In this document: piece by piece, positions 47,883-64,000 of the stretch
How the letters are laid out: each line of letters opens with the position of its first letter
How positions within the stretch are numbered: position 1 is the first letter of the stretch
Assembly (NCBI GenBank): GCA_017745235.1
Contig: JAGHZU010000003.1
Span: forward strand, 190,465 to 254,464
Reading direction: 5' to 3'
Source of the DNA: Caulobacter sp.
Lineage (GTDB): Bacteria; Pseudomonadota; Alphaproteobacteria; Caulobacterales; Caulobacteraceae
Length of the DNA stretch: 64,000 nucleotides
Translations under genes and position numbers: made by a program
Notes under the pieces: generated by a model
Told to the model about the DNA's origin: nothing
Seen by the model: the letters and a program-made list of their open reading frames with translations, nothing else
Database searches by the model: none

Positions 47883-47894
47883 GGTTCTGCGCCT

Positions 47895-49613
47895 CTAGAG
47901 TCCAAGCCCGCGCTTCTTGCCGAAAGACCAATCCACCCCGCTGTTGGTGATCGTGCCGCTGACCTCCTGGCCGAGCCGCGACTCCAGCGACCGGGTCCAC
48001 GGCACGAGTTGAAATCCCAGGCCGTCGTCGATCATGGCGAAGCGGCCGGAGGCGAGATCAAGGCGGCGGGCGTAAAGGCCCGACACCTGGTCCCCCTCCC
48101 CCCCGGTCACGACGGCCTTGCCACTGGCGGCGAGCTTGGCTTTCACCTGGTCGAGTTCGTAATCCCGCAGCTTGGCGATCAGCTTGCGCGCCGGCTGGAA
48201 CTTGCCGTCGCGGGTTTCACCCAGACCAGCGCTCCCCAGGTAGTCGCGGCGACGATCGAGGGCGTCATGCACCTCGGCGCCGAACCCGTGCTGCGCCAGC
48301 GCGGTCGGCTCGGCGACGACGAGTTGACGGTCCAGCCAGGTCGCGCCCTTGGCGCTGACCTGGGCGGTGATCGACAGATCGGAGCGATGCAACAGGCTCA
48401 AACTGCTCACGCCGTCGGCGTCCACCGTCGATCGGACCTCGACGAGGCCGCCGACTGGCGTGTCGCCGGAGGCGGCGAGATCGCGGAACCGAAAATGGTG
48501 CAGGCGACCATCGACGCCGTCGACGATGACATAGGCCTGGCCGTTGAGCTCGTCGTGCAGGCCTCGGTCCGCGACCCGACCGGTGACCGGCGCCTCCAGC
48601 GTCTCGCCTTCGATCACCATGCTGGCCGGATCTCGATCGATCCCACCCTGCGCCTGATGCAGGGTCTTGATGATGTCGCCGCGCAGGGCGATCTCGCGAA
48701 GCCTGGCTTCAAGATCCTTCGCCACGCGCCAACGGCCGGACGACACCTCCTCGGCCAAGCCATAGCGCTGGAGGACTTGGGCTCGGCCGATCAGACGACG
48801 CCGCTCCTCCGTGTCATTGCGGCCAGAGGGCCGAAGATCGACGTGACCGCTGCTCGGCTCGATCCTGTCGCGCAGGCGTCGGTCCAGACCCGTCCAACGC
48901 TCGGCCTCGACCTCTCGATCGGCGGCCGCGGCGATCTCCAGCGCCGAACGCGGCCCCAACTCCTGGGTGACCAATTGCTTGGCCCGCTCGCGCAGACCAT
49001 GGGCCATATAGTCCCGGTCGATCACCAGGTCGCGCCCGTCGTCAGCGACGCCGCGTACCAGCAGATGGACGTGCGGATTGTCGGTGTTCCAATGGTCCAC
49101 GGCGATCCAGTCGAGGCGCGTGCCCAGATCCTTTTCCATTTGCGCCACAAGATCGCGCGTGGTGGCGCGAAGGTCGGTCAGCTGGGCGGCGTCCTCGGGC
49201 GAGACGATGAAGCGGAAATGATGCCGGTCAGGCTCGGCGCGCTTGGCGAAGCTGTCATGATCGGCGACCCCGTCACGATCGAAGGCCTCTCCGGCGCGAC
49301 CATCGCGCCCAGCGCCCCCTCTGCGCAGGTAGTAGAGATGGGCGCCAAGACCGGCCGCCCGGAACCGCTGGCCGCGATGGCGGATGACCCGCCCCTTGAC
49401 GACGACCTGCCGCTGGCCTTGTGAGCGCGGGATGGAACGGCCCCGGCCGAAGGATCGGACGCTGCGGCGCGGCCCCAAGTCCATGCTCCCAAGCCCCGCT
49501 TTTCGGGCCGCTGCGGCGACCTCGGACGCGAAACTGCGGACCTTGCTCGCAGCGTTGCCGCCGCGATCGCGGATGCGACCTACCTTGGGCTCAAAATCGT
49601 CGTCACGCCGCAT
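47895..49613 (-). CDS. VirD2/RlxS-type relaxase with DUF3363
   Basis: HLYYLRR motif I, HHFRFIVSPED and VDHWNTDNPHVHLLVRG (3H motif). Confidence 0.92.
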   Translation of the reverse strand: MRRDDDFEPKVGRIRDRGGNAASKVRSFASEVAAAARKAGLGSMDLGPRRSVRSFGRGRSIPRSQGQRQVVVKGRVIRHRGQRFRAAGLGAHLYYLRRGGAGRDGRAGEAFDRDGVADHDSFAKRAEPDRHHFRFIVSPEDAAQLTDLRATTRDLVAQMEKDLGTRLDWIAVDHWNTDNPHVHLLVRGVADDGRDLVIDRDYMAHGLRERAKQLVTQELGPRSALEIAAAADREVEAERWTGLDRRLRDRIEPSSGHVDLRPSGRNDTEERRRLIGRAQVLQRYGLAEEVSSGRWRVAKDLEARLREIALRGDIIKTLHQAQGGIDRDPASMVIEGETLEAPVTGRVADRGLHDELNGQAYVIVDGVDGRLHHFRFRDLAASGDTPVGGLVEVRSTVDADGVSSLSLLHRSDLSITAQVSAKGATWLDRQLVVAEPTALAQHGFGAEVHDALDRRRDYLGSAGLGETRDGKFQPARKLIAKLRDYELDQVKAKLAASGKAVVTGGEGDQVSGLYARRLDLASGRFAMIDDGLGFQLVPWTRSLESRLGQEVSGTITNSGVDWSFGKKRGLGL

Positions 49614-49800
49614 GACGGCACGCGAACGGGCTAAGGGTCCCTATCAGGCCCTTGTTTTCATGAGGGAAACTGCACGTCGAGGACCGCGACCATGTCGAAG
49701 GTCCCTGTAAAATCCCAACATCATCAAGCACATAGGGGCCGAAGGTCCCTGTGCTTTTATCTTGCCTTAGGCCGATGTTCCTTTCGAGCCCCCCTTTCCT
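49614..49800. promoter_or_regulatory. Candidate oriT/relaxase promoter region with 13-bp direct repeats
   Basis: CGAAGGTCCCTGT at 49696-49708 and 49740-49752, a partial copy near 49633, then CTTTTATCTTGCC; directly upstream of the relaxase. Confidence 0.5.
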
Positions 49801-49838
49801 CCCCCGCGTGACCTTCCAACCGCTTGAGCTCCTGACGA

Positions 49839-50501
49839 TCATGGGCGCACCGCCGTCCAAGGCGCGCCCGGAACCTGGGGACCGTCAGCCATGACACCAT
49901 TCGTCCCTCGCACGACGAAGACGCCTGCCGTGCGCCAGTCCCGCGCAGGGCTGACGAGCGTCCTCTCGGCGCGCGATCCCTCGATCAGGGGCGTCAGCTT
50001 CCGAACGTAATCCTGGGTTTCTCGCGGCAGGGCCCTCCCCTGAACGAGGGATCGAGCATATCGCTCGGGTCCAGCGTTGTAGGCGGCGAGGAACCCTGGA
50101 GCGCCAAACCGATCGTACATTCGACGCATGTAGATCGCGCCGGCAAGGATGTTGGCGCGTGGCTCGAAAGGGTCGTCGCCCAGGCCAAACTCGGTCGTCA
50201 GGTCACGCCAGGTGGCAGGCATCAGTTGGAGCAGACCCATCGCCCCCTTCGCAGACACGGCGGACTCCTGCCCGCCACTCTCCTGATGCATAATCGCGTA
50301 GATCCACGCGGTCGGAATACCGAAACGGGCCGAGGCCTCGTCGACGGCTGCGGCGATGGTCTCGCCGCGGCTCACCATTGGGGCGGGCGACGCAGGCGTC
50401 GCCACCGAGCAGATCGTGAACGCAGCCGCCGCCGAACAGATCAAGGCGGACGCGCGCGCCGCGCGCGGAATCCTGCCGATCGCCTCGGTCACAACAAGCA
50501 T
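49839..50501 (-). CDS. Lytic transglycosylase (SLT); start uncertain
   Basis: IMHQESGG, SAKGAMGLLQLMP, NILAG and AAYNAGP. Confidence 0.85.
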   Translation of the reverse strand: MLVVTEAIGRIPRAARASALICSAAAAFTICSVATPASPAPMVSRGETIAAAVDEASARFGIPTAWIYAIMHQESGGQESAVSAKGAMGLLQLMPATWRDLTTEFGLGDDPFEPRANILAGAIYMRRMYDRFGAPGFLAAYNAGPERYARSLVQGRALPRETQDYVRKLTPLIEGSRAERTLVSPARDWRTAGVFVVRGTNGVMADGPQVPGAPWTAVRP

Positions 50502-50656
50502 GCGGCCGTGCTCGCCGCCGTCAAGGGCAAGGCGCGCTCCGCGCCGGCCTGGCGGCCACCCTTGACCGCGCCTCCGCTCGACCGCCGACGTTGTCTTGAC
50601 CGGGACGAGGAAAGGACCGGCAAACCGACCGAACAAGGAAAGGACCGGCCAGACGG

Positions 50657-51175
50657 TCATCGCCGCGCCTCCCACGTCCACAGGGAGCGCGCGCCGCCGG
50701 TCACCTGGCGCGCCGACACCGGACCGAAATAGCGCCCGTCGAGGCTGTTGGGGGCGTGACGGTTGAGGAGGAGCACCTCGTCCGGGGCAAGCCGCCGACA
50801 CTCCTGATAGGCGGGAAGCGCCCGCCCCTGCCGGTCTCGCGGGAGTATCCGAGCGACCGGGCGGCCATCGATCGACAGCACATCGCCTATGCCACAGACG
50901 CTCTGGCCACCAACCGCCGCCACCTCCTTCAGCAGCGGGACATTGGCCGGCAGGTAGCCGCGCCGCGCCATCCAGTCCGCCAGGGCACTGGGTGGCGTGA
51001 CCGCCGCCAACTGGCCCTTGGCAAAGCGTCCTGGCGTCAGCAGGTAGAAGCCAAGCGGCGCGCTTGCCGTTGTGTTGAAAAGCAGTCGTGGCGCGGGCCG
51101 CTCGCCTGGGCGAAGCACCAAGAGGCAGCCAATTGCCGCAACGGCGGCGACCGAAACGATCCGGCGGCGGCTCAC
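50657..51175 (-). CDS. traF: S26-family pilin-processing peptidase TraF
   Basis: FNTTASAPLGFY, LLKEVAA and SLDGRYFGP; GTG start at 51175. Confidence 0.88.
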   Translation of the reverse strand: MSRRRIVSVAAVAAIGCLLVLRPGERPAPRLLFNTTASAPLGFYLLTPGRFAKGQLAAVTPPSALADWMARRGYLPANVPLLKEVAAVGGQSVCGIGDVLSIDGRPVARILPRDRQGRALPAYQECRRLAPDEVLLLNRHAPNSLDGRYFGPVSARQVTGGARSLWTWEARR

Positions 51176-51651
51176 TGGAAGATACCCCGGCGCAGCGTGA
51201 AGGCACGGTGGCGCGCACGATCGTAAGCGCGCGCCGGCAAGCCGACGCCGACCCGGGCGCCAACATGACGCCAATAGTCAGGCGCGGCGCGGTGCGGCTG
51301 AACGCCGACGCGCTCGACGCTGTCGATGGCTTCCAGGACCGCCTGGACCTTCGACCACCCATGGACGTCCAGCAGGATTTCCGCGCCCGGCGCCACTTCA
51401 GGATAGGTCGTGAAGGCCTGGCCGGGGCGGACGGCGCGCAAGATGGCGATCCGGGAGTCCACCGTCCCGTAGGTCTCCGCGCGCCAACGCACGAACGCGA
51501 AGATCTCGCCGGGCGCGAACATCACAGTGCGGCGGCGGCGGTCATGAACCTCTTCGGCCGCGACCTGGCCAAAGCGGATCCAGCGCTCGATGCGCTCGGC
51601 GAGGAACAACAGATCAACGCGGGTCAGGCTGGAATTGACGCGCTCAATCAT
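51172..51651 (-). CDS. DUF2840 family protein
   Basis: RIERWIRFG...FAFVRW...YGT...GW.KV..VL.AID.VE...APDYWRHV. Confidence 0.88.
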   Translation of the reverse strand: MIERVNSSLTRVDLLFLAERIERWIRFGQVAAEEVHDRRRRTVMFAPGEIFAFVRWRAETYGTVDSRIAILRAVRPGQAFTTYPEVAPGAEILLDVHGWSKVQAVLEAIDSVERVGVQPHRAAPDYWRHVGARVGVGLPARAYDRARHRAFTLRRGIFQ

Positions 51652-51931
51652 CGCCACGCCGCCCGCTGTAGGCTGGCGCGATGGCGGCATGGGCCTGGGC
51701 CGGCGGCGTCGCCACGGCGTCACGGTCGCTCGTCGAACGGCGCACGCCCCGTCGCGACCAGTCATTCAGGTCGTTCAAGGCGTAGAGGATGCGCCCGCCG
51801 TTTTTCCGATAGACGGGCCCCGTGCCATAGCAGCGGTGTTTGGCCAGGGTCGCTGGTGAAAGGCGCAGATGTTTGGCGGCCTCGGGGGCCAGCAGGAGAC
51901 GCTCGGCCGGCGGCTCGTCGATCTGGGACAT
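51644..51931 (-). CDS. HTH DNA-binding protein (AlpA/excisionase-like)
   Basis: EAAKHLRLSPATLAKHRCYGTGPVYRK.GGRILY. Confidence 0.88.
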   Translation of the reverse strand: MSQIDEPPAERLLLAPEAAKHLRLSPATLAKHRCYGTGPVYRKNGGRILYALNDLNDWSRRGVRRSTSDRDAVATPPAQAHAAIAPAYSGRRGDD

Positions 51932-52054
51932 GACCTGATCCTTCGCGAGCCGCCGGAAAGCTCCGGACATCGGGCGGCGGCTCCAGGAAAGGCTGGCGCA
52001 CGACGTCCTCGATCAGGGATGGCGAAGGCAGGCGGGGGGCTGAATTCGCCCCGG

Positions 52055-52801
52055 CTAGAACCCGGCTCGTAGCAGGCGCAGATAGCCGCCTGACATCAGT
52101 GCGCGGCCTCGACGCACGAGGCGCGCGGTGACGTCGCGGATGGTCGAGGTGGCGAACTCCGCCCCTTCCGTCTCTTCCGGTCCGAACAATTCGCGCGCGA
52201 TCTCGCGGTGGGTGCGGTCTTTCAACGTCGCGTCCAACGCGAAAAGACAGCGCGCCAACCGTTCCTTTTGCGCCGTGCTGAGACGCGAAACTGGCGGCGC
52301 GTCGGTAAGATCGGCGCGCCGCAACGCATCGACGGCGCGAACCCTGAGATTGAAGTCCGCGTCATAGGCCATGACGACCATCAGCGGCCCGCCGGACGGG
52401 GCGTCGCCGCGTAACAGCACCTGCAATCCGCTCGGAAGCCGGATGTGACGACCGTCCTCCCCCTGGCGGATGTCGGACCGTGCGACCGGCAGCGGCCGTG
52501 GCTCGCCAAACGACGCACGCTCGACCGGCACGACCAATCCTGGCGCAACGTCCTCGCGCCAGATGACTTTCCCCTCGTCAGCTGTGAGGTCCGGGTCGGT
52601 GGGCGCGGCAAGTCCCCAGCGTCGATCGAGCGAAGCGCCGGCATGTTGAATGCGGACGAAGTTCAGACGATAGGCCGGGTTGCGCCGTAGAAACTCCCAG
52701 CACAAGGCTGGCGTCGTCAGCCGAACAACCGCGCGCCAGCCGCCGCCGGCGCCACCACGCGGCGGCCGACCCGATCCCTGACTGGCGAGCGGCGCGGCCA
52801 T
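52055..52801 (-). CDS. FseA-like activator (DUF6499 + DUF2285 in one ORF)
   Basis: CWEFLRRNPAY...RRWGL N-domain; ALDA...HREIARELFG...RLVRRG..LMSGGY..LL C-domain. Confidence 0.82.
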   Translation of the reverse strand: MAAPLASQGSGRPPRGGAGGGWRAVVRLTTPALCWEFLRRNPAYRLNFVRIQHAGASLDRRWGLAAPTDPDLTADEGKVIWREDVAPGLVVPVERASFGEPRPLPVARSDIRQGEDGRHIRLPSGLQVLLRGDAPSGGPLMVVMAYDADFNLRVRAVDALRRADLTDAPPVSRLSTAQKERLARCLFALDATLKDRTHREIARELFGPEETEGAEFATSTIRDVTARLVRRGRALMSGGYLRLLRAGF

Positions 52802-52966
52802 ATAGGTATGCCGCCAGACACCTCGGCGGCACGCACGGACTCTCGCCCAATCCTCAGGTCTTGCGCCGATAACATGCGGCAGAGCGACTAATGGAGCGCA
52901 GTTATTTGGAAGTAAGAACGCAATCGTTGCCGAATTGATGGCAGCAATCAGGCGATGCCAACGCGA

Positions 52967-53305
52967 CTACTTTCGCAGCTTGAGCGCGGCAACAATGAGC
53001 TCATGAAGGTTCTGAAGATCGCGATCCTTCAACCCGACGAGCAGCTTGAAAATCGCGGCTAGCGGATCTTCGCGATCAGAACGCGCCGCGTACTCGCCCG
53101 TCCCAAACAGTTCACGGACATCCACATTGAGCGCGGTGGCAAGCCGTTCAAGCGTGTCGAACGTTGGCGCGGCCTCACCACTTTCCAGCCGCTGGACCGC
53201 ATTCGGTTGACGATCGATCTTCTCGGCGAGTTGCGCTTGGCTGAGGCCGGCTCGCTTCCGATGATACCGGAGCATCTCACCGAACTGTTCTTCCAGCTTC
53301 GACAT
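52967..53305 (-). CDS. XRE-family HTH regulator
   Basis: RKRAGLSQAQLAEKI...LESGEAAPTFDTL. Confidence 0.88.
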   Translation of the reverse strand: MSKLEEQFGEMLRYHRKRAGLSQAQLAEKIDRQPNAVQRLESGEAAPTFDTLERLATALNVDVRELFGTGEYAARSDREDPLAAIFKLLVGLKDRDLQNLHELIVAALKLRK

Positions 53306-53429: not shown

Positions 53430-53960
53430 GTGGGGCAATCTCAGGTGGACGGCCCCATGGACGGCTTTTCTTCTCCAGCCCCGACGCGCTCCGCCTTCGC
53501 CGGAGCGGTCGAAGCGCTCTATCGGCAATACGACAGCTGGCTTCGCGGCGTGCTGCGCAAACGCTATGGCGACCAGGCCGATGACCTGGTGCACGAGACC
53601 TATCTCCGCGCCGCCGCCCAGGCGGCCAACGGGGAAGTGCGCCACCATCGCGCCTTCCTCCTCAGCATCGCCGAGAACCTCGCGCGAGATCGCGCCCGCC
53701 GCCTGATCCGGGAAGAAAAGCGGCAGGTCAACGCGGAGGCGTTCACCTTGCAATCGACCGCCGCGCCGCAGGAGCATGCGGTGACATTGAAGCAAATCGT
53801 GCTGGCTCTACCGCCAGAGTTGCGCGATGTATTCTTGCTGACCCACATCCAGGGGCTGAGCTACCGCGAGGTCGCGGTCCTCCGGAATATCCCGGAGCGG
53901 ACCGTGAAGGATCGGATGCGAAGAGCCCTTGCGAAAACGTCGGCGGCCATGCGGGACTAG
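53430..53960 (+). CDS. ECF sigma factor (FecI-like)
   Basis: ADDLVHETYLR region 2; LPPELRDVFLL...GLSYREVA region 4; upstream of fecR-like gene. Confidence 0.9.
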   Translation: MGQSQVDGPMDGFSSPAPTRSAFAGAVEALYRQYDSWLRGVLRKRYGDQADDLVHETYLRAAAQAANGEVRHHRAFLLSIAENLARDRARRLIREEKRQVNAEAFTLQSTAAPQEHAVTLKQIVLALPPELRDVFLLTHIQGLSYREVAVLRNIPERTVKDRMRRALAKTSAAMRD

Positions 53961-53973
53961 GGCGGCGCTCGTC

Positions 53974-54984
53974 ATGATCAAGGTTAGAAGCAAGGGTGGG
54001 CGCGTCACGCGCGAGGCGGGAGCCTGGCACGCGCGGCTCAACGACACCCATCCTCGTATTGACACCGAGGATCTCGAAGCGTTCTCGGCCTGGAGATCCG
54101 ATCCCAAGAACAAGGCCGAATACGATCGGATCGACGACATCAGCCGCAGCCTCAGGGCGCTGCAGAACGATCCCGACATCCGCCAAGCGACGGCGGAGGC
54201 GCTCGCGCGCGGGCCTGAGCGACGCCGTTTCGTCCTCCGACTTGGCGCCCGTCGGGTGCGCATCGTCGTGGGGGCGCTCGTGGCCGCCAGCGTGATCGCG
54301 TCGGTGGCCGGGGGCTACATCGCCCTGCGCCCGACCTATTCAACGGGCGTCGGCCAATCCTTCAGCGCCCGCCTTTCTGACGGCTCACGGCTTACCCTCG
54401 ACACCGACAGTCAGGTGCGCGTTCGCTTCAGCGACGGCGAGCGCCGGATCGAACTTTTGCGTGGCCAGGCGCTGTTCGAAGTCGCCCACAACGCCCAGCG
54501 CCCCTTCATTGTTCAAGCCGGCGACACCAGGGTTCGCGCCACCGGCACACGGTTTGAAGTGCGCAAGATCGGCCAAGATGTCCGCGTGACCCTGACGCAA
54601 GGCAGCGTCGAGATCGTCGATGCTGACGCCAAGTCAAAGGCCTGGCGGCTAAAACCTGGTGAGACCTTGGCGCTAAAGCCCGCCGATGTCGCCAGCGCAA
54701 CACCCATGCCCGTGGACGTACAGGCCGCAACCAGCTGGACCTCGGGCGCGCTGATCTTCCAAGATCTACCGCTGGATCAGGCGATCGCGGAACTGAACCG
54801 GTACAGTCGCCAAAAGATGATCCTCGCCCAAGGCGCGCCGCACGCCTCGCGGATCAGCGGCGTGTTCCCGACCGGCGACAATGACGACTTCATCGCCGCG
54901 GTCACCTGGCACTACGGGCTCCGGGCGGAGCGAAACTCCAATGGCGACATCGAACTACACCCGGAAAGGGAGCCCAAAGCCTAG
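53974..54984 (+). CDS. FecR-family anti-sigma factor
   Basis: EAGAWHARL, LSDGSRLTLDTDS, LLRGQALFEVAH, RATGTRFEV and SWTSG. Confidence 0.9.
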   Translation: MIKVRSKGGRVTREAGAWHARLNDTHPRIDTEDLEAFSAWRSDPKNKAEYDRIDDISRSLRALQNDPDIRQATAEALARGPERRRFVLRLGARRVRIVVGALVAASVIASVAGGYIALRPTYSTGVGQSFSARLSDGSRLTLDTDSQVRVRFSDGERRIELLRGQALFEVAHNAQRPFIVQAGDTRVRATGTRFEVRKIGQDVRVTLTQGSVEIVDADAKSKAWRLKPGETLALKPADVASATPMPVDVQAATSWTSGALIFQDLPLDQAIAELNRYSRQKMILAQGAPHASRISGVFPTGDNDDFIAAVTWHYGLRAERNSNGDIELHPEREPKA

Positions 54985-55077
54985 CGTCATATTTTTTTCA
55001 CGTACCCACCGCCCGAACCCTCCCGTTCGGTCGTCTCACCCGCGATCCATCGACGGCTGAAGCGCGCCTCAAACTGG

Positions 55078-58000
55078 TTGCGCCCGCGATGGCGGGGGAA
55101 TTGGGAGATGATGCGCGTAACAGTCGGTTTGTTGAGTTCAGCGTCCATGAGCGTTCTGGCGGCCGTTACGCCGAACATCGCTTACGCGCAGGAGCCCGTG
55201 TATTCCGTCGCGGTGCCTGCGGGGCCGATGAAGAAGTCGCTCGTCGCGGTGGCAAGCCAAGCCCACATCAAGATCCTCTTCGAGACCGAACTGGTCGCCG
55301 GGCTCAAGGCTCCAGCGCTTAGCGGCCGATACACGCCGCGTGAGGCCGTGGAGCGGCTTCTGACCGGCACGCCCATAGCCGTCGAACAGGTCCGCCCAGG
55401 CCTTCTGGTGCTGCGTTCGCGGCGCTCTCCCGTAAGCACCTTAGGCGGCGATGGGCTGGCGGCGGGTGAGGCGCCAGGACAATCGGCCAGCCTTTCGGCG
55501 CCGGACTCCGAACCCGTGCTGGTCGAGGAAATCGTCGTCGGCTCGCACATCCGGGGCGCCAGGGATGCGGCCTCGCCTGTCGTGACGCTTGGCCGCGAAA
55601 CCATAGATCGCGGCGGCTTCGGCAGCATCGCCGACGCCCTGGCCGCGCTACCACAGACCTTCTCCGGGACAGCCAGCAACCGCGCCGGCGGCGTCGCCGC
55701 CGACACGACCGGCAACAACGCCGGGCGAGCTACGGGCGTCAATCTGCGCGGCCTGGGCGCGGACGCCACCCTGGTGCTCGTGAACGGTCGTCGCATGGCC
55801 GGTGCGGGCCTGATGGCCGACTTCGCCGACATCTCAAGCCTGCCGCTGTCCGCCGTCGAGCGCGTCGATGTTCTGCTCGACGGCGCCTCGGCCGTCTATG
55901 GATCGGACGCGGTTGGCGGCGTGGTCAATGTGGTGATGCGCGACCGTTGGGTGGGCCTGGAGACCCGCGCGCGCGTCGGTGGCGCGACGCAGGGCGGCCT
56001 TGGGCAGTATCAACTCGGCCAAACCTTCGGTACGGCCTGGACAAGCGGATCGGTGCTTTTGAGCGCCGAATATCAGAGAACTAACCAGGTCATGGGCCGT
56101 GATCGCACCTATACCGCCAGCGCCGACCTTCGGCCGTTCGGAGGCGTCGATCACCGCCTCTTCTACAGCCAACCCGGCACAGTGCTCGTCGGCGGAGCGC
56201 CGGCGTTCGCGATCCCATCGGGCCAGAACGGCACGGCGCTGACGCCGGGATCGTTTCTCGCGGGTCAGGCCAACTATCAGGACATGAACCAGGTCGCGGG
56301 CATCCTGCCCGAGCAAGAGCGCTTCGCGATCTACGCCTCGGCGTCGCAGGATCTCACCGCGCGCGTCAGCGTCAACGCCGAGGCCCGGTTCAGCAATCGT
56401 CGCTACGCCCATTGGAACCTGGCGCCTGTGGCGGCGCTGACGGTGACGCGGGCCAATCCATATTTCGTGTCGCCCAACGGCGCGGCGTCCAACACCATCG
56501 CCTACTCTTTCCAGAACGAAACCGGGGCCAGCCGCGGCGTCGGGCGGGTGCGCAGCACCAACTTCTCGTTCGGCGCCAAGGTGGATCTTCCCGCCCGCTG
56601 GCGGCTGGATGTCTATGCCGGGCACGGCGAGGAACTGACCCGTGGCGGCGCGAGCGGGCTCATCAATTCGGCGGCGTTGAACGAGGCGCTCGGCAACACG
56701 CCCGACAATCCGCAGAGCACCTACAGCGCCAGCCGCGATGGCTACTTCAATCCCTATATCGGCCAAGGCCGCAATACGCAGGCGGTGCTGGACTTCGTCG
56801 TGTCCGGTTGGGACCGTCGCCGCACGCTCGGCAAGCTCGACATCGTCAACGCCGCCGCCGATGGCGCGCTGTTCTCCTTGCCGGCGGGCGCCGTGCGCCT
56901 GGCGTTCGGCGCGCAGGCCCGGCGCGAGTTCCTCAAGATGTACGGCGTCAGCACCTCCTCGTCCCTGATCCCCGTCCCGCTTTCCCCGCGTCGCGGCGAG
57001 CGCACGGTCCACGCCGTGTTCGGTGAAGCGCGCGTGCCGCTGTTCGGCGGCGATTTTCAGAGGCCTGGGCTTGCGAAGCTGGAACTGTCGGCCGCCGTTC
57101 GGTTCGAGGACTACGGCGGCGGCGTCCACTCGACCGTTCCCAAGCTTGGCCTGGCCTGGGCGCCCGTCGAGGACCTGACCCTGCGCGGAACGTACGGCGA
57201 GTCCTTCCGCGCGCCGTCGATCGGACAGCTCACCGACGCGCCGGGCGCAACCCCGGTGACTCTGAACAACGGGACGCGAAACGTGCTGACGCTGATCCTG
57301 ATCGGCGGCAATCCCAACCTTTCGCCAGAGACCGCCAAGTCCTGGACGGGCGGCTTTGAATACGCGCCCCTCGCCCACCCCGGCTTGCATCTTTCCGGAA
57401 CGCTGTTCCGCACCGAGTTCGAAGGCCGCATCGGTCGGCCGGCGATCAACTATCTCTCGACAATCCTGACGGCGGCGGATTTGGCGCCGTTTCGCACCCT
57501 GGTGTCGCCCGCCTCCAGCAGCACCGACCTGGCCCTGGTCAAATCCTATCTGGCCAACGCCTCCGTCGCCGCCCAGGCGCTCTACCCGGCCGAGGCCTAT
57601 GGAGCGATCGGCGACGCGCGCTACGTCAATGCCGGAGCCTTCACTGTCGAGGGTGTTGATCTGGCGGCCGCACATCGCTTGACCCTGGGCGAGGATCGTC
57701 TCGATCTCAGCGGCAATCTCTCCTGGTTGCTGCACTACAGGCGCAAGGTCACCTCGGCCTCGACCACCGCCGAGCTGGCAGGCATGCCGGGCTTTCCCGC
57801 AGATCTGCGCGCCAGGGCCTCGGCGACCTGGACCCACCAGGCGTTCGCGACGACCGTCTCGCTCAACCATATCGGCGATCTCCACACCGACAGCGGACGG
57901 CGCATGGCGTCGCTGACGACCGCCGATGTGCAGGTGCGATGGGCGCCGTCGGCGCGCTCGGGCCCGTGGCGCGGAACCGCCGTGTCGCTGACGGTTCAGA

Positions 58001-58116
58001 ACCTCTTCGACAAGGACCCGCCGTTCTACGACGCGCCCCAGATCGTCGGGTTCGACGCCACCAACTATGACCCGAGCGGCCGAGTCGTCGCTCTGCAGCT
58101 GACCAAGGCCTGGTAG
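55078..58116 (+). CDS. TonB-dependent outer-membrane transducer with N-terminal STN domain
   Basis: STN segment, EEIVVGSHI TonB box, plug (NLRGLG...LVLVNGRR...DGASAVYGSDAVGGVVN), C-terminal W. Confidence 0.93.
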   Translation: MRPRWRGNWEMMRVTVGLLSSASMSVLAAVTPNIAYAQEPVYSVAVPAGPMKKSLVAVASQAHIKILFETELVAGLKAPALSGRYTPREAVERLLTGTPIAVEQVRPGLLVLRSRRSPVSTLGGDGLAAGEAPGQSASLSAPDSEPVLVEEIVVGSHIRGARDAASPVVTLGRETIDRGGFGSIADALAALPQTFSGTASNRAGGVAADTTGNNAGRATGVNLRGLGADATLVLVNGRRMAGAGLMADFADISSLPLSAVERVDVLLDGASAVYGSDAVGGVVNVVMRDRWVGLETRARVGGATQGGLGQYQLGQTFGTAWTSGSVLLSAEYQRTNQVMGRDRTYTASADLRPFGGVDHRLFYSQPGTVLVGGAPAFAIPSGQNGTALTPGSFLAGQANYQDMNQVAGILPEQERFAIYASASQDLTARVSVNAEARFSNRRYAHWNLAPVAALTVTRANPYFVSPNGAASNTIAYSFQNETGASRGVGRVRSTNFSFGAKVDLPARWRLDVYAGHGEELTRGGASGLINSAALNEALGNTPDNPQSTYSASRDGYFNPYIGQGRNTQAVLDFVVSGWDRRRTLGKLDIVNAAADGALFSLPAGAVRLAFGAQARREFLKMYGVSTSSSLIPVPLSPRRGERTVHAVFGEARVPLFGGDFQRPGLAKLELSAAVRFEDYGGGVHSTVPKLGLAWAPVEDLTLRGTYGESFRAPSIGQLTDAPGATPVTLNNGTRNVLTLILIGGNPNLSPETAKSWTGGFEYAPLAHPGLHLSGTLFRTEFEGRIGRPAINYLSTILTAADLAPFRTLVSPASSSTDLALVKSYLANASVAAQALYPAEAYGAIGDARYVNAGAFTVEGVDLAAAHRLTLGEDRLDLSGNLSWLLHYRRKVTSASTTAELAGMPGFPADLRARASATWTHQAFATTVSLNHIGDLHTDSGRRMASLTTADVQVRWAPSARSGPWRGTAVSLTVQNLFDKDPPFYDAPQIVGFDATNYDPSGRVVALQLTKAW

Positions 58117-58149: not shown

Positions 58150-60630
58150 ATGCGATTTCTCGCAGGGCTGGCGCTTGCTTGCGCGCTAGCTGGCCCCGTC
58201 GCGGCAACGCCCCCCGCACCGCCGAGGCCGTATACCGTCGAAGACCTGCTCGCCGTCCGAAACTTCGGGCGCGCGGCGTTCTCGGGCGATGGGCGCACAG
58301 CCATCTTCGAAGTTCAGGGGCCCATCACGGCCGCCGGACAATGGGATCTCGAGTTCCTGTCCATCCAGCGGACAAGCCGTCTCTATGTCGTCGATGTCGA
58401 GCGCGGCGGCCCGCCCAAACGTCTGCTGCGATCGGCGGCCGGTGGCGAAACCCTCGGCGCGGTCTCGCCCGACGGACGGCGCGCCCTCGTCTACCGGCTC
58501 GTCGACCATACCAACGAGCTCGGGGTGCTGGACTTCTCGACCCGGACGGTGAGCTGGTCCGGCCGCGCGGTCGACGCCGAGGCCTGGCTCAGCCTCGCAC
58601 GTTGGCGCAACAACACCGAGGTCGTGTTCCTGGCCACGACAGCCGACGCCCCGTCCATGCTCCTGAACCAAGGTTGGCAGAGCCAAGCGCGAACCATCGC
58701 GGCCTGGAAGGCGGCCCAGGCTGGTCAGCCAAGCGTCGTGGTCCTGAGGGGTGGCCCCGGCGCCGAACAAAACCCGACCTGGCCGCAAAGCGATGTTGTG
58801 CTGCTCGACGCCCGCACAGGCGCCACGAAGCTGCTGACGCGAGGCCCCTTCATGGAGCTTTCCATCGCCCCGGGCGGCGAGAGCGTGGCGCTGATCTCGG
58901 CGGATGAACCGGTGACGATGGATGGGTCGATGCTGGCCCAGAACGGACTCTTCGACCGTCGCCGCAGGCTGATGTTCATAGATCTTCGGAACGGCCGGAT
59001 CGTTCGTCCCTGTCCGCGCTGCGACCTTGCCGCCGCCCTGATCAGCTGGGCCCCGGACGGTGGCTCGGCCCTGGTCGTCGCGCAGCCGGATGACGCCAAG
59101 TCCGGCGACTGGAGGCGGATACGCTACTGGCGCCTTTCCACCACAGGCGCGGCCAGCGCGGTGTCGGAGGATCTGTCGCCAGGCCTGACCCGCACGGTCG
59201 GCGGCACCACGGCCCTGCTTGCGCCCGACGCGGGCTGGGTGGACGGCGCGCCAGCGATCTTCGCGCATCGCGCCGGTGAGACCGCGATGGCCTGGTGGAC
59301 GATCGATGCGTTCGGCGCCCGCGCCCTCGCATCGGACCTCTCCGTCGAGGCGGGCCGGCGCCTGGCCGCCTCGCCGCATGGCTTTCTGGTGCGCACGCCC
59401 CAGGGCGTGGTCGATCTTGCCGCGCCCCGCGGTCCGGCTGTCGCCGGCCCGCAGGACAAGGTCCTCGCGGCCTCGGCCCTGGCCGGCGAACTCCCCAAGG
59501 TCCTTCAGATCGAGGATGCCGGCGGCGCGCGGTTGCTGACGTCCACCGGGGTCGTCCGTTCCGCCTCTCCGCTTGCGCTCGGCGCCAATCTGCTGGCCGT
59601 GTCCCCCGCTGCGTCAGCGACTTTGAGCGTGACCAAGACGGCCAATGGCGTCGGAACGCTCTGGCTGGCCAGGCCGGAGAAGCCGTCGCTTGCCCTGATG
59701 GCCCTCAATGCCGCCTTGGCAGATGTCGATCTCGCCACGCCGCGACCGATTGTTCATCGCACGCCGCGTGGGCAAACGGTGACGAGTTGGCTCTACACGC
59801 CCGGTGACCACAAGGCCGGTGACGACCGCCCACTCGTCGTCGTCCCCTATCCTGGCTCCAACTACGCCTCGCCGCCCGCGCTCGCGGCGCCGGACGCCCG
59901 GGGTTACACCGCCAATGTTCGCTTGCTGGTGGGCGCCGGCTACGCGGTGCTGGTCCCCAGCCTGCCGATCCCGGCCGACGCGCCGCCCCAGGAGGGGTTG
60001 GCCGAGGCCATGCTGATGGCTGTCGACGCGACCTTGGCGGCAGACCCAGGGCTCTCGGCCAAGAAGCTCGCGGTCTGGGGACACAGCTTCGGCGGCTACG
60101 GCGCCCTGGTCGCCGCCACCCAGACCGCGCGGTTCAAAGCCGTGATCGCCTCGTCCGGTGTGAGCGACATGTTCTCATACTGGGCCGCGCAAGGACCGGC
60201 GGCGACGGCTATTCCAGAGGTCATGCTCAGGATCTCGACCATGTTCGGCTGGGCGGAGACCGGACAGGGCCGCATGGGCGGCCCGCCGTGGGCGCAGCCC
60301 CAGCGCTACATCGACGGAAGTCCCCTGCTGCAGGCCGACAAGATCACCGCGCCCGTGCTCCTCATCCAGGGCGACCTCGATTACGACCCCTACAAGTCGA
60401 TGGCGATGTTCGCGGCGCTCTATCGGCAGGGCAAGCCGGTCGAATTGCTCACCTATCCCGGGGAAGGCCACGTCGTGCAGTCGCCGGGCAATGTGCGCGA
60501 TGTCTACGCCCGCGCCTTCGCCTTCCTTCAGGCGGCGTTCTCGGCCGTCCCGGGCGAAGCGGGTGGGACCGCGACAGCGGTCTCGGCAAGGCTCGGCGAC
60601 GCCGCGCCGGCGTCACAACCTTCCCAGTAG
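58150..60630 (+). CDS. Lasso peptide isopeptidase (S9 prolyl-oligopeptidase family, AtxE2-like)
   Basis: GHSFGGY, QGDLD and GEGH catalytic triad; signal peptide; beta-propeller region; adjacent to lasso B/C genes. Confidence 0.85.
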   Translation: MRFLAGLALACALAGPVAATPPAPPRPYTVEDLLAVRNFGRAAFSGDGRTAIFEVQGPITAAGQWDLEFLSIQRTSRLYVVDVERGGPPKRLLRSAAGGETLGAVSPDGRRALVYRLVDHTNELGVLDFSTRTVSWSGRAVDAEAWLSLARWRNNTEVVFLATTADAPSMLLNQGWQSQARTIAAWKAAQAGQPSVVVLRGGPGAEQNPTWPQSDVVLLDARTGATKLLTRGPFMELSIAPGGESVALISADEPVTMDGSMLAQNGLFDRRRRLMFIDLRNGRIVRPCPRCDLAAALISWAPDGGSALVVAQPDDAKSGDWRRIRYWRLSTTGAASAVSEDLSPGLTRTVGGTTALLAPDAGWVDGAPAIFAHRAGETAMAWWTIDAFGARALASDLSVEAGRRLAASPHGFLVRTPQGVVDLAAPRGPAVAGPQDKVLAASALAGELPKVLQIEDAGGARLLTSTGVVRSASPLALGANLLAVSPAASATLSVTKTANGVGTLWLARPEKPSLALMALNAALADVDLATPRPIVHRTPRGQTVTSWLYTPGDHKAGDDRPLVVVPYPGSNYASPPALAAPDARGYTANVRLLVGAGYAVLVPSLPIPADAPPQEGLAEAMLMAVDATLAADPGLSAKKLAVWGHSFGGYGALVAATQTARFKAVIASSGVSDMFSYWAAQGPAATAIPEVMLRISTMFGWAETGQGRMGGPPWAQPQRYIDGSPLLQADKITAPVLLIQGDLDYDPYKSMAMFAALYRQGKPVELLTYPGEGHVVQSPGNVRDVYARAFAFLQAAFSAVPGEAGGTATAVSARLGDAAPASQPSQ

Positions 60631-62372
60631 CGCACGAAGGCTTCCAGCACGGTCGCCGTCAGCACCTCCGAATAGGTGTTTCGGAAGATCAGCGCATCCG
60701 GACTCAGCACCGTCTCCAGATCCTGTCGTCGGATCACGCCTTGGGCCACCAAGCGGCCCTCGAGCAGGAAGTCCCGAAGCATCGGGGCGTTGAGCGCCAG
60801 GGTGCGTCCGAGGAACACGCTGATGTCGCCCTTGGAGCGTCGCGAGACGATGATTTCGGGAAGACGGTCGGCGAAAACCCGACGCGCGAAGCTGCGCTCG
60901 CCCTCGCCTTGGCTGAGGACCGGTGTCGAGATCTCAAGGCAGGCCTCGACCACCGGCTGGCTCAGCAGCGGATGACAAAGGCGAGCCGCCGCGCCCCGGC
61001 GAGTATAGGCGAACACGCCTTGGGTCAGGGCCAGACCTCGGATCTGGGCGCGCTTGGCGGGTGGCAACCGGTGGAGATCGGTGACCCAGGGGTGCCAGTC
61101 GCCGTCGGTCCGCGCCGGCGCCAGCACCTTGGGTGCGGACATCAGGGCCTCGACCCTGCGGCTGGGATGCCCCCGGAACGATTGCGCCAGAAGGCTCCAC
61201 ACCGAGCGACGGGTTCGCAAGGCCACCTCGACTAGGCGCGTCAGGCGCGCGCCTTCACAGGGCGCGCCGCGCAGCAGGTCGCCGGCCAGCTCCGCCGCCG
61301 CCAGCTGGTAGAAGACGACATCGCCGCCATGGCCGGTGAACAGGATATCGGCGCCGACCGTCTCGATGGCCTCAAGCGCCAGGGTGTCGAAATCGGTGTC
61401 GAGGATTTCGAAGTTTGGACGAAAGGCGCCCGCGTCAGCCATCAGGCCCGCCTGGGTCAGCGCCATCACCGGCCGTTCGACACATTGAAGCGGCGTGGCC
61501 GCCCGCTCGGCCGCCGCCTTGGCATAGACCCGCTCGTCCGCCTCGGCCTGGCTACGGAAGAAATTGAGGCCAGCGTCGGCTGGTCGCCCAATGGCGCGAA
61601 GGCTTGTAGCGACAATGGCCGAGTCCAAACCGCCGGAGATTTCGCAGAGCACGCGCTGTCGGCCCAGCAGGAAGGCGCGCAGCGTACCATCGACAGCCCG
61701 GCGCAGTCCGACTTCGTCCCCCAGACGCGGGCCGCGGCGGGCCGCCTCCCCCGGCGTCCAGACGACATTGCGTCCACCAAGCTCAGGACCGTGACGGCAC
61801 ACGCCCGGCTCGATCCAGACGACGCCCTTCAAGGGCGGCGCGGCGCCCATGCGGCGTGGATCGGCCATGAGATCGGAGACGCCGTCCCAATCAACGCGCA
61901 CCCCTGCGGGCGCGGCGAGGCCTTCGGGCGGTTCGTCCGCAACCAAGGTCACCCCGTCTTTGAACCATGCGAAGGCCGGAAGCCCACCCAGGGGGTCAGA
62001 GGCGATGATCGGCCCGCCGCCATGGCGATCACGCAGGACGACGACGTAGTCGCCGAAGGCGTGACGCGCGAGCCACGGGGCGACCGATCTGGGATCCTCG
62101 CTCGGCGCCGCGCCAAGCGCTTGTGGGTCGAGGACAGCCGCTAAGCCGTCATCAAGTGATGCGCGATCGAAGACGTCTCCGATGATCGCGCCCACCGTCC
62201 CCTTCCAGTCGCCGAGCGGCCGCACGGGCGGTGCGGCCCGGTTTCTGGTCAGGGCGGCGAGGCCATAGGGCTGCAACACGAGCATCCACCCTCGGGCCTG
62301 CAGGTCGGCGACCATGGCGTCGAACGCGTCGGCGGTTCGGCCTCCTGGATGGGTCAGCACCACATAGGCCAC
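60528..62372 (-). CDS. Lasso cyclase C (asparagine-synthetase-like)
   Basis: EISGGLDSAIV, FTGHGGDVVF, CHPLLSQPVVE and RRSKG; GTG start 5 bp after the B stop. Confidence 0.9.
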   Translation of the reverse strand: MAYVVLTHPGGRTADAFDAMVADLQARGWMLVLQPYGLAALTRNRAAPPVRPLGDWKGTVGAIIGDVFDRASLDDGLAAVLDPQALGAAPSEDPRSVAPWLARHAFGDYVVVLRDRHGGGPIIASDPLGGLPAFAWFKDGVTLVADEPPEGLAAPAGVRVDWDGVSDLMADPRRMGAAPPLKGVVWIEPGVCRHGPELGGRNVVWTPGEAARRGPRLGDEVGLRRAVDGTLRAFLLGRQRVLCEISGGLDSAIVATSLRAIGRPADAGLNFFRSQAEADERVYAKAAAERAATPLQCVERPVMALTQAGLMADAGAFRPNFEILDTDFDTLALEAIETVGADILFTGHGGDVVFYQLAAAELAGDLLRGAPCEGARLTRLVEVALRTRRSVWSLLAQSFRGHPSRRVEALMSAPKVLAPARTDGDWHPWVTDLHRLPPAKRAQIRGLALTQGVFAYTRRGAAARLCHPLLSQPVVEACLEISTPVLSQGEGERSFARRVFADRLPEIIVSRRSKGDISVFLGRTLALNAPMLRDFLLEGRLVAQGVIRRQDLETVLSPDALIFRNTYSEVLTATVLEAFVRYWEGCDAGAASPSLAETAVAVPPASPGTAENAA

Positions 62373-62376
62373 GGGG

Positions 62377-63033
62377 CTAGACCTCCATGATCGGCGCGAA
62401 CGCGCAAAGGCGTTCAGCTTCATCGTCCAGGGCGATGTCCTCCACCTGGAGCCAGCAATGGGCCTGGAACGGCCAGGTGCGCACGCCAAACACCCAGGTT
62501 GGCCGATGCCCCAGCACTCTCAGGAAGGCGGCGAGCATGCCGCTGCGAAACAGGCAGACACCGTCCATCGGCAACCAGGGCGCCAGTCGCCGCCAGACGG
62601 CGATGTCCGCCAGCAGGCGTGGGATGTCGTGGTGCGCGGACGCCTCTGACGGGCCGTGGGCCTGGACGACCTGGCGAAAGGTGCGGCGGCGGCTGGCGAG
62701 GCCAGCCCGCACGGCGGCGGCCAGCGCGGCGATGTGGGAAAAGCGAACGCGGCCGTGCATCTGCGGGGCCAACTCCAGAAGCCTGCGCGCCGTGCGCTCG
62801 GGCGCCGTCGGGCGCGATCTCAGGGGCGATGCGTCGCCGGCGAACATGACCAGGCCCGCGCCGACAAGCTCCTCGCCCAGTTGGACATCGGGCGTGACCA
62901 GGATCTCCCCATCCAGCACGACCAACCCTTCCGGGAGCGGAAGGCAGAAATAGGCGTCGGCGTCGACATCGAGAAACACCAGGTCGCTGTCGATCATCAC
63001 CGCATGGACGGGCTCGGTCAGTTGCAGTCGCAC
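62377..63033 (-). CDS. Lasso B protein (fused RRE + transglutaminase-like leader peptidase)
   Basis: LVFLDVDADAYFCL RRE; VCLFRS, FGVRTWPFQAHCWLQ and ALDD Cys-His-Asp triad. Confidence 0.92.
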   Translation of the reverse strand: MRLQLTEPVHAVMIDSDLVFLDVDADAYFCLPLPEGLVVLDGEILVTPDVQLGEELVGAGLVMFAGDASPLRSRPTAPERTARRLLELAPQMHGRVRFSHIAALAAAVRAGLASRRRTFRQVVQAHGPSEASAHHDIPRLLADIAVWRRLAPWLPMDGVCLFRSGMLAAFLRVLGHRPTWVFGVRTWPFQAHCWLQVEDIALDDEAERLCAFAPIMEV

Positions 63034-63058
63034 GGCATTGTCCTCGGCTCGGCGAAGG

Positions 63059-63088
63059 CGCCGGCGGCGACGATGGCCGCCGCCGGCG
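63059..63088. terminator. GC-rich hairpin between precursor and B gene
   Basis: 11-bp perfect stem CGCCGGCGGCG/CGCCGCCGGCG with an 8-nt loop. Confidence 0.7.
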
Positions 63089-63094
63089 GTCGGC

Positions 63095-63202
63095 TCAGAC
63101 GTTCGCGAATTCCCGGGGCACAGGGCTTTCCGGGATCGTGCCTTCGGAGCCTTCGGTCAGCTGCTTGGCCGAGCCGACGCGGATCAGACGCTGGGTCATC
63201 AT
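63095..63202 (-). CDS. Lasso precursor A3: leader MMTQRLIRVGSAKQLTE, core GSEGTIPESPVPREFANV
   Basis: Hand translation; RBS AAGGAGAG; LIxxGxAxxLT leader with Thr at -2; Gly1 and Glu8. Confidence 0.92.
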   Translation of the reverse strand: MMTQRLIRVGSAKQLTEGSEGTIPESPVPREFANV

Positions 63203-63264
63203 GTCTCTCCTTGAGGATGTTCAACCGCGAGATGCGGCGCAATCAGGAGGCGACCGGAGCGACG

Positions 63265-63280
63265 TATATTCAAATCTATA
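63265..63280. promoter_or_regulatory. 16-bp operator-like box TATATTCAAATCTATA, copy 1
   Basis: Identical to 63674..63689; 63 bp upstream of the A3 start. Confidence 0.65.
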
Positions 63281-63320
63281 TTTGCCGGTTCGAAATCCAG
63301 CGTCGGCGTCATTGGGCTGC

Positions 63321-63415
63321 TTAGAGGTGGCGCGGGACGAGCGCTTCGGAAGCGAGCCCCCGTCACCAAGGCTCAACGACCTCGCCAGACCGCCCAGGAT
63401 CAGACGTAAAGGCAT
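63321..63415 (-). pseudogene. Lasso precursor A2 with 1-nt deletion (restored core GDGGSLPEALVPRHL)
   Basis: Leader MPLRLILGGLARSLSL then GDGGSLP; adding one G at CCG^AA gives EALVPRHL*; span is 95 nt. Confidence 0.75.
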
Positions 63416-63504
63416 GGGGGCGCTCTCTATGGGCGATGACTTTTGCCAATGCGTGGCGCGCAGGGCGACGGCGGACGACCATGCCGTCCGCCGTCGCGTC
63501 GAAA

Positions 63505-63618
63505 TCACAAGCCTGAATAGAGCCTGCCGGTCATGTCTTCCGGCACCAGCTGGATATCGCCGGCCTGGGTCAGGGCCGTGGCCGAGCCGATCGCGATCAG
63601 TCGCATACGCATCGTCAT
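63505..63618 (-). CDS. Lasso precursor A1: leader MTMRMRLIAIGSATALTQ, core AGDIQLVPEDMTGRLYSGL
   Basis: Hand translation; RBS AAGGAG; Thr at -2; Ala1 and Glu9. Confidence 0.88.
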   Translation of the reverse strand: MTMRMRLIAIGSATALTQAGDIQLVPEDMTGRLYSGL

Positions 63619-63667
63619 CTCCTTAGGTTCGAGCCGCCGTTTGCGGCTCGAACAGGGGGCTACCGCC

Positions 63668-63695
63668 CGCGACTATATTCAAATCTATAGTCGCG
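63668..63695. promoter_or_regulatory. Operator-like box copy 2 within a 10-bp inverted repeat (CGCGACTATA-TTCAAATC-TATAGTCGCG)
   Basis: Read directly; 16-mer core lies 56 bp upstream of the A1 start and overlaps the upstream gene's stop. Confidence 0.65.
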
Positions 63696-64000
63696 AGCGT
63701 ATCGATGCGGTCAGGGCGGCTGTGAAGATCGCCCCGCTGCGCCTTGCGCGGCGTGCGTAGTACCGCCGAAAGAAGGCGGCGAGCTCGTGAGCCGCCACCG
63801 GCCATCGCTCGGCGGACAGAGCAATGGCTTCCGCAACAGCGAAGGGCGCGAGCTGGTTCAGGACGCGGGTGACCTCGGCGGCGAGCACGCGATTGTCCAC
63901 CTGTTCACGGAGGACGCCGAGCGCCTGCAACGGCGTTCCAGCGCTGACAGGGCCCGTGACGCGCCGGAAGAGCTGGAGCGACAGGAGTCCGGCCAGGCCG
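63685..64000 (-). CDS. 3' end of a probable GntR-family regulator (runs off window)
   Basis: Open frame ...NRVLAAEVTRVLNQLAP...RRYYARRARR...RL*; GntR genes commonly precede precursors in this cluster type; no HTH visible in window. Confidence 0.45.
   Translation of the reverse strand, partial: GLAGLLSLQLFRRVTGPVSAGTPLQALGVLREQVDNRVLAAEVTRVLNQLAPFAVAEAIALSAERWPVAAHELAAFFRRYYARRARRSGAIFTAALTASIRSRL

Follow-up and report, generated by a model that had tools for sequence, protein, structure and literature searches.

Two short open reading frames (ORFs) in a stretch of Caulobacter sp. DNA of 64,000 nucleotides (contig JAGHZU010000003.1, positions 190,465 to 254,464 of the forward strand; hereafter the window) raise the question of whether they encode lasso peptide precursors, whether one set of maturation enzymes would handle both, and whether the resulting peptides belong to a new kind of system. 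An earlier inspection by a model (hereafter the original prediction) had placed a multi-precursor lasso peptide cluster with two apparently new cores at 62377-63618. The analysis presented here indicates that the locus, judged by its genes, is very probably a functional cluster for class II lasso peptides, of the caulosegnin, isopeptidase-associated type, from a Caulobacter-like alphaproteobacterium. What was observed directly, and carries this reading, is the gene content, the sequence motifs, the conservation, and the homology with a characterised cluster.

Two precursor genes precede one pair of maturation enzymes

The two small genes, termed A1 and A3, lie directly upstream of the gene for a fused leader peptidase (B), which is followed by the gene for a lactam synthetase (C), all on the minus strand. 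The features are as follows (aa, amino acids).

63612-63505, minus strand: precursor A1 of 35 aa, counted from the second ATG; products called in two Logan assemblies
63612-63565, minus strand: A1 leader, MRMRLIAIGSATALTQ
63564-63508, minus strand: A1 core, AGDIQLVPEDMTGRLYSGL, with a predicted Ala1-Glu9 isopeptide ring and a tail of 10 residues
63199-63095, minus strand: precursor A3 of 34 aa, counted from the second ATG; products called in two Logan assemblies
63199-63152, minus strand: A3 leader, MTQRLIRVGSAKQLTE
63151-63098, minus strand: A3 core, GSEGTIPESPVPREFANV, with a predicted Gly1-Glu8 ring and a tail of 10 residues
62377-63033, minus strand: fused lasso leader peptidase B, 218 aa, with a strand-rich N-terminal part and a C-terminal transglutaminase-like protease
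60528-62372, minus strand: lasso lactam synthetase C, 614 aa, with a GTG start 4 nt past the B stop codon

Both precursors were found at the predicted places on the minus strand, each behind a strong ribosome-binding site (RBS), AAGGAG, and each with the leader motif LIxxGSAxxLT and a Thr residue at position -2; all of these elements were verified. When the first possible start is included, the complete frames read (MT)MRMRLIAIGSATALTQ/AGDIQLVPEDMTGRLYSGL for A1 and (M)MTQRLIRVGSAKQLTE/GSEGTIPESPVPREFANV for A3, the slash marking the predicted cleavage site. The leaders had been estimated at 17 to 18 aa from these frames, which have alternative in-frame ATG codons at 63618 (A1) and 63202 (A3). 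A length of 16 aa is most likely for both: in A1 the Shine-Dalgarno sequence runs directly into the first ATG, and in A1 and A3 alike the second ATG is the start used by the orthologues and by the gene calls of two independent Logan assemblies. The precursors have the features of class II substrates, namely, a penultimate Thr in the leader, a small N-terminal core residue, and an Asp or Glu at core positions 7 to 9. Specifically, the junctions ...LTQ/AGDIQLVPE (A1) and ...LTE/GSEGTIPE (A3) combine Thr(-2) with a small residue 1 and a Glu at position 9 or 8, respectively, and the ring-forming pairs Ala1/Glu9 and Gly1/Glu8 are present in the cores as claimed. The cleavage sites, the ring residues and the threading of the tail are predictions by homology. 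The computed monoisotopic masses of the dehydrated cores, 2015.9986 Da for A1 and 1866.9111 Da for A3, match the values of about 2016.0 and 1866.9 Da that had been calculated by hand for the cyclised peptides. The description of the A3 core as Pro-rich is better replaced by the count, which is 3 Pro in 18 residues. A six-frame scan of the 64 kb with the leader-core pattern returned A1, A3, and one further match, at 49731, with no likeness to a precursor. Of the elements of the cluster, the range 62377-63618 holds A1, a decayed third precursor (A2; see below), A3, and B, but C lies outside it.

B matched PF13471 (E = 2.9e-18, 66 bits, cut-off 26) and NF033537, the NCBI lasso B2 model (E = 6.2e-20, 72 bits, cut-off 33). 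Its catalytic triad, composed of Cys160, His192, and Asp204, is invariant among 13 homologues, as befits a Cys-His-Asp protease. The N-terminal third of the protein, which is strand-rich in the predicted structure, contains the conserved residues D17, V19, L21, Y28, C30, and L31. C matched PF00733 (Asn_synthase; E = 4.9e-17, 63 bits, cut-off 21) and carries the motif SGGLDS at residue 246, which identifies it as an asparagine-synthetase-like protein with a PP-loop ATP site. Its matches to the lasso cyclase models of NCBIfam are weak and fall below the cut-offs. No second B or C gene was found in the 64-kb window, and the single pair must therefore serve both precursors. The gene content and the precursor features thus fit a multi-precursor class II cluster with one B and one C, as the original prediction had proposed. 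A B2 product of 135 aa is listed at NCBI for Caulobacter sp. UC70_42 (P0139).

Precursor genes are conserved in related Caulobacteraceae

Orthologues of both A1 and A3 were found in three other Caulobacteraceae genomes, the CAULO1 metagenome-assembled genome, Caulobacter sp. BE254, and Caulobacter sp. UC70_42 (loci L001 to L003), whose B proteins are 66 to 71% identical to that of the window. A1 is nearly identical in these genomes and A3 is related. At the DNA level, the A1 and A3 coding regions are 74 to 92% identical across these loci and two copies of a 16-bp box described below are 94 to 100% identical, whereas identity in the spacers amounts to 29 to 61% (29 to 45% for the spacer from A1 to the second box). 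When 19 precursors from 13 loci were aligned, no variation was seen at the leader Gly, Thr(-2), or the ring Glu. Because the coding regions are conserved relative to their flanks and the motif positions do not vary, A1 and A3 are considered real genes. The rings of A3 and its orthologues, GSEGTIPE, GTSGDTPE, and GSDGQTSE, have Glu8 as the sole acidic residue of the ring region common to all, which supports the Gly1-Glu8 ring predicted for A3. The A1 ring, AGDIQLVPE, together with the following DMTG, is unchanged in eight further A1-type database sequences except for one Gln-to-Glu exchange at position 5. These eight sequences are labelled at most "hypothetical protein," as are the deposited orthologues of Caulobacter sp. 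BE254, and the exact A1 core of the window was found solely in its own two Logan assemblies. In one A1-type precursor from another assembly (P0091), Ile replaces Thr at position -2 (...KTLIL/AGDIQLVPE...), which recalls the penultimate-Ile leaders that have been reported (PMC10368454).

Purifying selection over the whole precursor was considered as a proof of real genes and discarded, as it did not emerge when synonymous and non-synonymous codon differences were counted.

Relationship to the caulosegnin cluster and other lasso systems

The match to B led to a locus of Caulobacter segnis (CP027850.1; L017). The caulosegnin I to III cluster of this species was reportedly described by Hegemann et al. 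in J Am Chem Soc in 2013 (135:210). The locus encodes the three published caulosegnin cores exactly, as checked against Table 1 of a 2025 review (PMC12427821). The identities of the window proteins to their counterparts in this locus are 51% for B, 47% for C, 44% for an S9 peptidase, and 59% for a TonB-dependent receptor. The order of the genes is shared as well and comprises a helix-turn-helix protein of 165 or 166 aa, a GntR regulator, short-leader precursors, fused B, C, the convergent S9 peptidase, a TonB receptor with an STN domain, FecR, and an extracytoplasmic function (ECF) sigma factor. The 16-bp box TATAGATTTGAATATA stands before the first precursor in identical form in both loci, and the three caulosegnin precursors share the leader motif (L/V)(I/V)R(L/V)GxAxxLTx with A1 and A3. 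Because of this common gene order, box, and leader type and the protein identities, we assign the locus to the caulosegnin-type group. In the caulosegnin cluster, too, one B/C pair handles precursors of 8- and 9-membered rings. A3 resembles caulosegnin I in Gly1, Pro7-Glu8, and an RE in the tail, and A1 resembles caulosegnin III in its 19 residues, Glu9-Asp10, Thr12, and Tyr16. Nevertheless, the cores differ from the caulosegnins, with identities of at most 6/18 for A3 and 5/19 for A1. Further differences are the Ala at the start of A1, the decay of the middle precursor in the window, and the presence of an exact box of its own before every intact precursor of the window.

A second point of comparison is provided by the caulonodins. 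Caulonodins VI and VII of Caulobacter sp. K31 are said to have been described by Zimmermann et al. in Chem Sci in 2014. Caulonodin VI is a characterised lasso peptide of 19 residues starting with Ala (PMC12214591). Like A1, it features an Ala-Gly start, Leu6, Pro8-Glu9, a 9-membered ring, and Tyr16 (core according to PMC12427821 and PMC12214591), and it originates from a two-precursor cluster; the statement that a ring of the Ala1-Glu9 type is known from the caulonodins is borne out by this precedent. In this comparison of core sequences, only 6 of the 19 residues are identical to A1 when counted by eye. The clusters for astexin-2 and -3 (with AtxE2, from Asticcacaulis excentricus) and sphingopyxin I (with SpI-IsoP) have the same isopeptidase-type layout without an ATP-binding cassette (ABC) exporter (PMC9266682) and an S9 enzyme with a GxSxG serine. 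The window differs from these in its much shorter leaders and in predicted ring closure via Glu rather than Asp.

Short-leader family and novelty of the cores

A profile built from the precursors of the window and the related loci was searched in a representative library of 1.84 billion proteins and retrieved 84 representatives, one of which differs from the caulosegnin III precursor by no more than two residues. Among the 79 representatives with a recognisable cleavage motif, 25 begin the core with Ala, mostly with a Glu eight residues on, so that the Ala1 of A1, which had been called uncommon, is a regular feature of this leader family. A1 and A3 share the characters of the family, which are a leader of 16 to 23 aa and the motif (L/V)(I/V)x(L/V)GxAxxxTx directly before the core. 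Six representatives of 74 to 80 aa (P0031, P0035, P0037, P0049, P0065, and P0076) contain two leader-core units in tandem within one ORF, for example ...RLGSARAETR/ADGPGPHMELIPGYFYDK...VRLGSARAATR/AVEDGTRAELIPERFWD..., and by their sequences look like fused double lasso precursors. We know of no described case of such fusions.

No match was obtained when the full text of about 8.4 million papers was searched for either core, for its ring part, or for six strings from close homologues. When compared with the 55 characterised cores in Table 1 of PMC12427821, A1 reached at best 8/19 and A3 at best 7/18 identical residues. The claim that neither core is among the known lasso peptides thus held, and both appear undescribed as far as checked, the RODEO, antiSMASH, and MIBiG catalogues lying outside the comparison. 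Because the cluster is homologous to the characterised caulosegnin cluster, A1 and A3 are, judged by sequence, variants within a known family and no new kind of system.

Regulatory elements, stem-loops, and a decayed precursor

The region around the precursors contains a regulator gene, repeated boxes, several stem-loops, and remnants of a third precursor (UTR, untranslated region).

63685-64000, minus strand: C-terminal part of a GntR-family regulator that runs off the window; full length of 184 aa in Logan contig L015 (PF00392)
63689-63674, minus strand: 16-bp AT-rich box TATAGATTTGAATATA upstream of A1, inside the perfect inverted repeat CGCGACTATA-N8-TATAGTCGCG
63280-63265, minus strand: the 16-bp box again, as an exact copy upstream of A3
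63628-63652, minus strand: 5'-UTR stem-loop TTCGAGCCGC-AAACG-GCGGCTCGAA just before the A1 RBS (-33.7 kcal/mol, z = -4.6)
63465-63497, minus strand: GC-rich stem-loop of 15 bp after the A1 stop codon, without a U tract (-36.7 kcal/mol, z = -3.8)
63060-63088, minus strand: GC-rich stem-loop of 13 bp between A3 and B (-37 kcal/mol, z = -2.5)
63321-63415, minus strand: decayed third precursor A2, from a three-frame translation, without a box of its own

A homologous GntR gene precedes the precursors in all related loci. The 16-bp box occurs twice in the 64 kb versus 0 copies expected by chance; it is kept in L001 to L003 and L006, in addition to the exact copy in the caulosegnin locus. It is a putative operator for GntR or promoter for the ECF sigma factor. 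Upstream of the TonB receptor gene, the box is missing and a GAACC-N13-CGTC element with the look of an ECF-type promoter is located (55008-55042, plus strand); at A3, a similar element, GAAT-N13-GTCG, follows the 16-bp box. Phenylobacterium loci have a degenerate box, ATATAGTTTGAAT, often preceded at a distance of about 11 nt by a second ATATA(G/T). The interval between box and RBS harbours a hairpin of the type GCCGCAAxCxCGCGGC in nearly all related loci (L001 to L013), with variation on both sides of the stem; the copies in the window are located at 63628-63652 and 63225-63241 on the minus strand. L001 and L002 have a stem-loop at the same position between A3 and B.

A2 consists of the leader-like sequence MPLRLILGGLARSLSL with Ser at position -2, followed by GDGGSLP, and an A3-like tail, EALVPRHL*, in another frame. 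It lies within about 220 bases of poorly conserved DNA (29 to 45% identity). Two independent Logan assemblies give the identical sequence for it, so that the decay is not an error of a single assembly. L002 and L003 contain differently decayed leader-like ORFs at the same position.

A convergent operon and a conjugative-element setting

On the opposite strand, an operon converges on C.

58150-60630, plus strand: S9 serine peptidase of 826 aa that carries a signal peptide, convergent with C; candidate lasso isopeptidase
55147-58116, plus strand: TonB-dependent receptor with an STN domain (PF07660, PF07715, PF00593)
53430-53960, plus strand: ECF sigma factor
53929-54984, plus strand: FecR-type anti-sigma factor

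Isopeptidase-type clusters have a constant layout, in which GntR is encoded ahead of the precursor and the isopeptidase has a TonB transporter and a sigma/anti-sigma pair as neighbours (PMC9266682). The window shows this architecture, with GntR before the precursors and the S9 peptidase, TonB receptor, and sigma/anti-sigma pair alongside, and no ABC transporter gene is present among the called genes of L015. The S9 peptidase matched PF00326 (E = 5.6e-27) and has a GHSFGG serine motif at residue 644; in comparisons with 5txc and 5jrk, E values of only about 5e-5 were obtained over parts of the sequence. Its structure model displays a generic S9 propeller-hydrolase fold. Generic S9 peptidases are its top PDB hits in both sequence and fold, and SpI-IsoP stands at rank 36 of the fold search. 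By sequence, it groups with the S9 peptidase of the caulosegnin locus, and it is a candidate isopeptidase on account of its gene neighbourhood alone. In L003 (8402-10663, minus strand; Caulobacter sp. UC70_42), the S9 frame is about 100 residues short relative to its relatives and has no signal peptide, which may reflect a frameshift or truncation.

The cluster is flanked on one side (window 45912-53305) by genes for a TraG coupling protein, a DUF3363 relaxase, an SLT transglycosylase, a RovC/DUF2285-type regulator, and an XRE helix-turn-helix regulator, and on the other, past base 64000 (L015 62-2583), by genes for an XRE-like protein of 166 aa, DUF736, and ArdC. The same XRE/DUF736/ArdC genes flank the cluster of L001, where they are better conserved than the lasso genes, and DUF736 or a neighbouring 122-aa protein is present in L002, L003, L005, and L006. 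Around the caulosegnin cluster of C. segnis, AlpA, ParB, three DUF736 genes, and a homologous gene for a 165-aa protein were found. From these flanks in the window and the related loci, a conjugative element appears to carry the lasso module as cargo; a literature search returned no paper describing such a setting for this type of cluster. A wider proposal is that the whole make-sense-import-linearise module (GntR, precursors, B, C, S9 peptidase, STN-TonB receptor, FecR, and ECF sigma factor) is integrative conjugative element cargo that travels with an element family through the Caulobacteraceae, and that the A1 and A3 peptides would be element-encoded signals or scavenging ligands for the element's own receptor and not host antibiotics. 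We regard this proposal as unlikely.

Weighing the alternatives

Several observations weigh against a functional cluster of the caulosegnin type. The S9 peptidase failed the test for the AtxE2 family (NF033523, 74 bits versus a cut-off of 400, with only the C-terminal hydrolase part covered), and neither its sequence nor its predicted fold brings it closer to the two lasso isopeptidases of known structure than to ordinary S9 enzymes. The N-terminal part of B gave no Pfam match to PqqD, and a fold search with the B model (predicted local distance difference test [pLDDT] value of 88) yielded no significant match in the PDB, only short local matches to TbiB1, a lasso recognition element, at E values of about 0.3 to 0.6. 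In the codons of the orthologous precursors, non-synonymous differences outnumber synonymous ones; such an excess is usual for the cores of peptides that are made by the ribosome and modified after translation (RiPPs). Finally, the decay of A2 is evidence that parts of the locus can be lost. The last point leads to the possibility that the locus is silent or partly defunct, its sequence intact but at least one precursor unmade or unprocessed and heading the way of A2. Decay of A2 is already seen in each of the four close genomes, and the S9 peptidase of L003 looks N-terminally truncated. On the other hand, A1, A3, the boxes, and the RBS are conserved amid diverged neighbouring spacers, the catalytic motifs of B and C are all retained, and the A1 ring is nearly constant among the eight A1-type database sequences, which together make a defunct locus quite improbable.

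It could also be argued that A1 and A3 are chance frames in GC-rich DNA beside an orphan B/C pair, as spurious ORFs abound in DNA of high GC content and the exact precursor sequences are recorded from Logan assemblies only, not from NCBI. This explanation is effectively refuted by conservation, as orthologues of A1 and A3 exist in many assemblies; moreover, the pattern scan of the 64 kb left these two as the sole precursors, and the leader profile recovered a precursor resembling that of caulosegnin III. A different doubt concerns the N-terminus of A1, which might mature with Ala lost or with cleavage one residue later, giving GDIQLVPE... with an 8-membered Gly1-Glu8 ring like that of caulonodins I and II. 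The Ala-less core indeed aligns best with these two peptides (GDVLNAPE and GDVLFAPE), with 8 of 19 residues identical. However, a shifted cleavage would put Thr at position -3, at odds with its invariant place at -2 in the 19-precursor alignment; Ala directly after Thr-x is frequent in the leader family, mostly with the matching Glu; and caulonodin VI, a characterised Ala1 peptide, speaks against a loss of Ala. A different N-terminus of A1 is accordingly very unlikely.

Proposed pathway and implications

In the preferred reading of a functional caulosegnin-type cluster, each precursor, behind its own 16-bp box and strong RBS, would be made as a peptide of 35 (A1) or 34 (A3) aa with a 16-aa leader. 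The N-terminal part of the single fused B would bind the shared leader motif LIxxGSAxxLT, and its Cys-His-Asp protease would cleave past the residue next to Thr(-2). C would then adenylate the ring Glu, which would be joined to the new N-terminus around the threaded tail. The predicted products are a peptide of 19 residues with an Ala1-Glu9 ring (2015.999 Da) and one of 18 residues with a Gly1-Glu8 ring (1866.911 Da); candidate plug residues are Arg14/Tyr16 for A1 and Arg13/Phe15 for A3. The GC-rich stem-loops 3' of the precursor genes probably keep the levels of precursor transcripts above those of B and C. The convergent operon of ECF sigma factor, FecR, STN-TonB receptor, and secreted S9 peptidase would sense and re-import the peptides and possibly linearise them. 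Such a role has previously been proposed for astexin-type clusters; here, the regulation and the parts played by peptidase and receptor are inferred.

For a class whose predicted members number in the thousands, two further lasso sequences are a small gain. Yet, the system is compact, with one B/C pair predicted to make both a nine-membered ring starting with Ala and an eight-membered ring starting with Gly from precursors with 16-aa leaders, and would be convenient for studies of substrate tolerance. The near-constant ring of A1 and the variable one of A3 hint at different constraints, e.g., recognition by a receptor or peptidase. The setting among conjugative genes, which extends to the caulosegnin cluster, bears on the unsolved purpose of isopeptidase-type lasso peptides.

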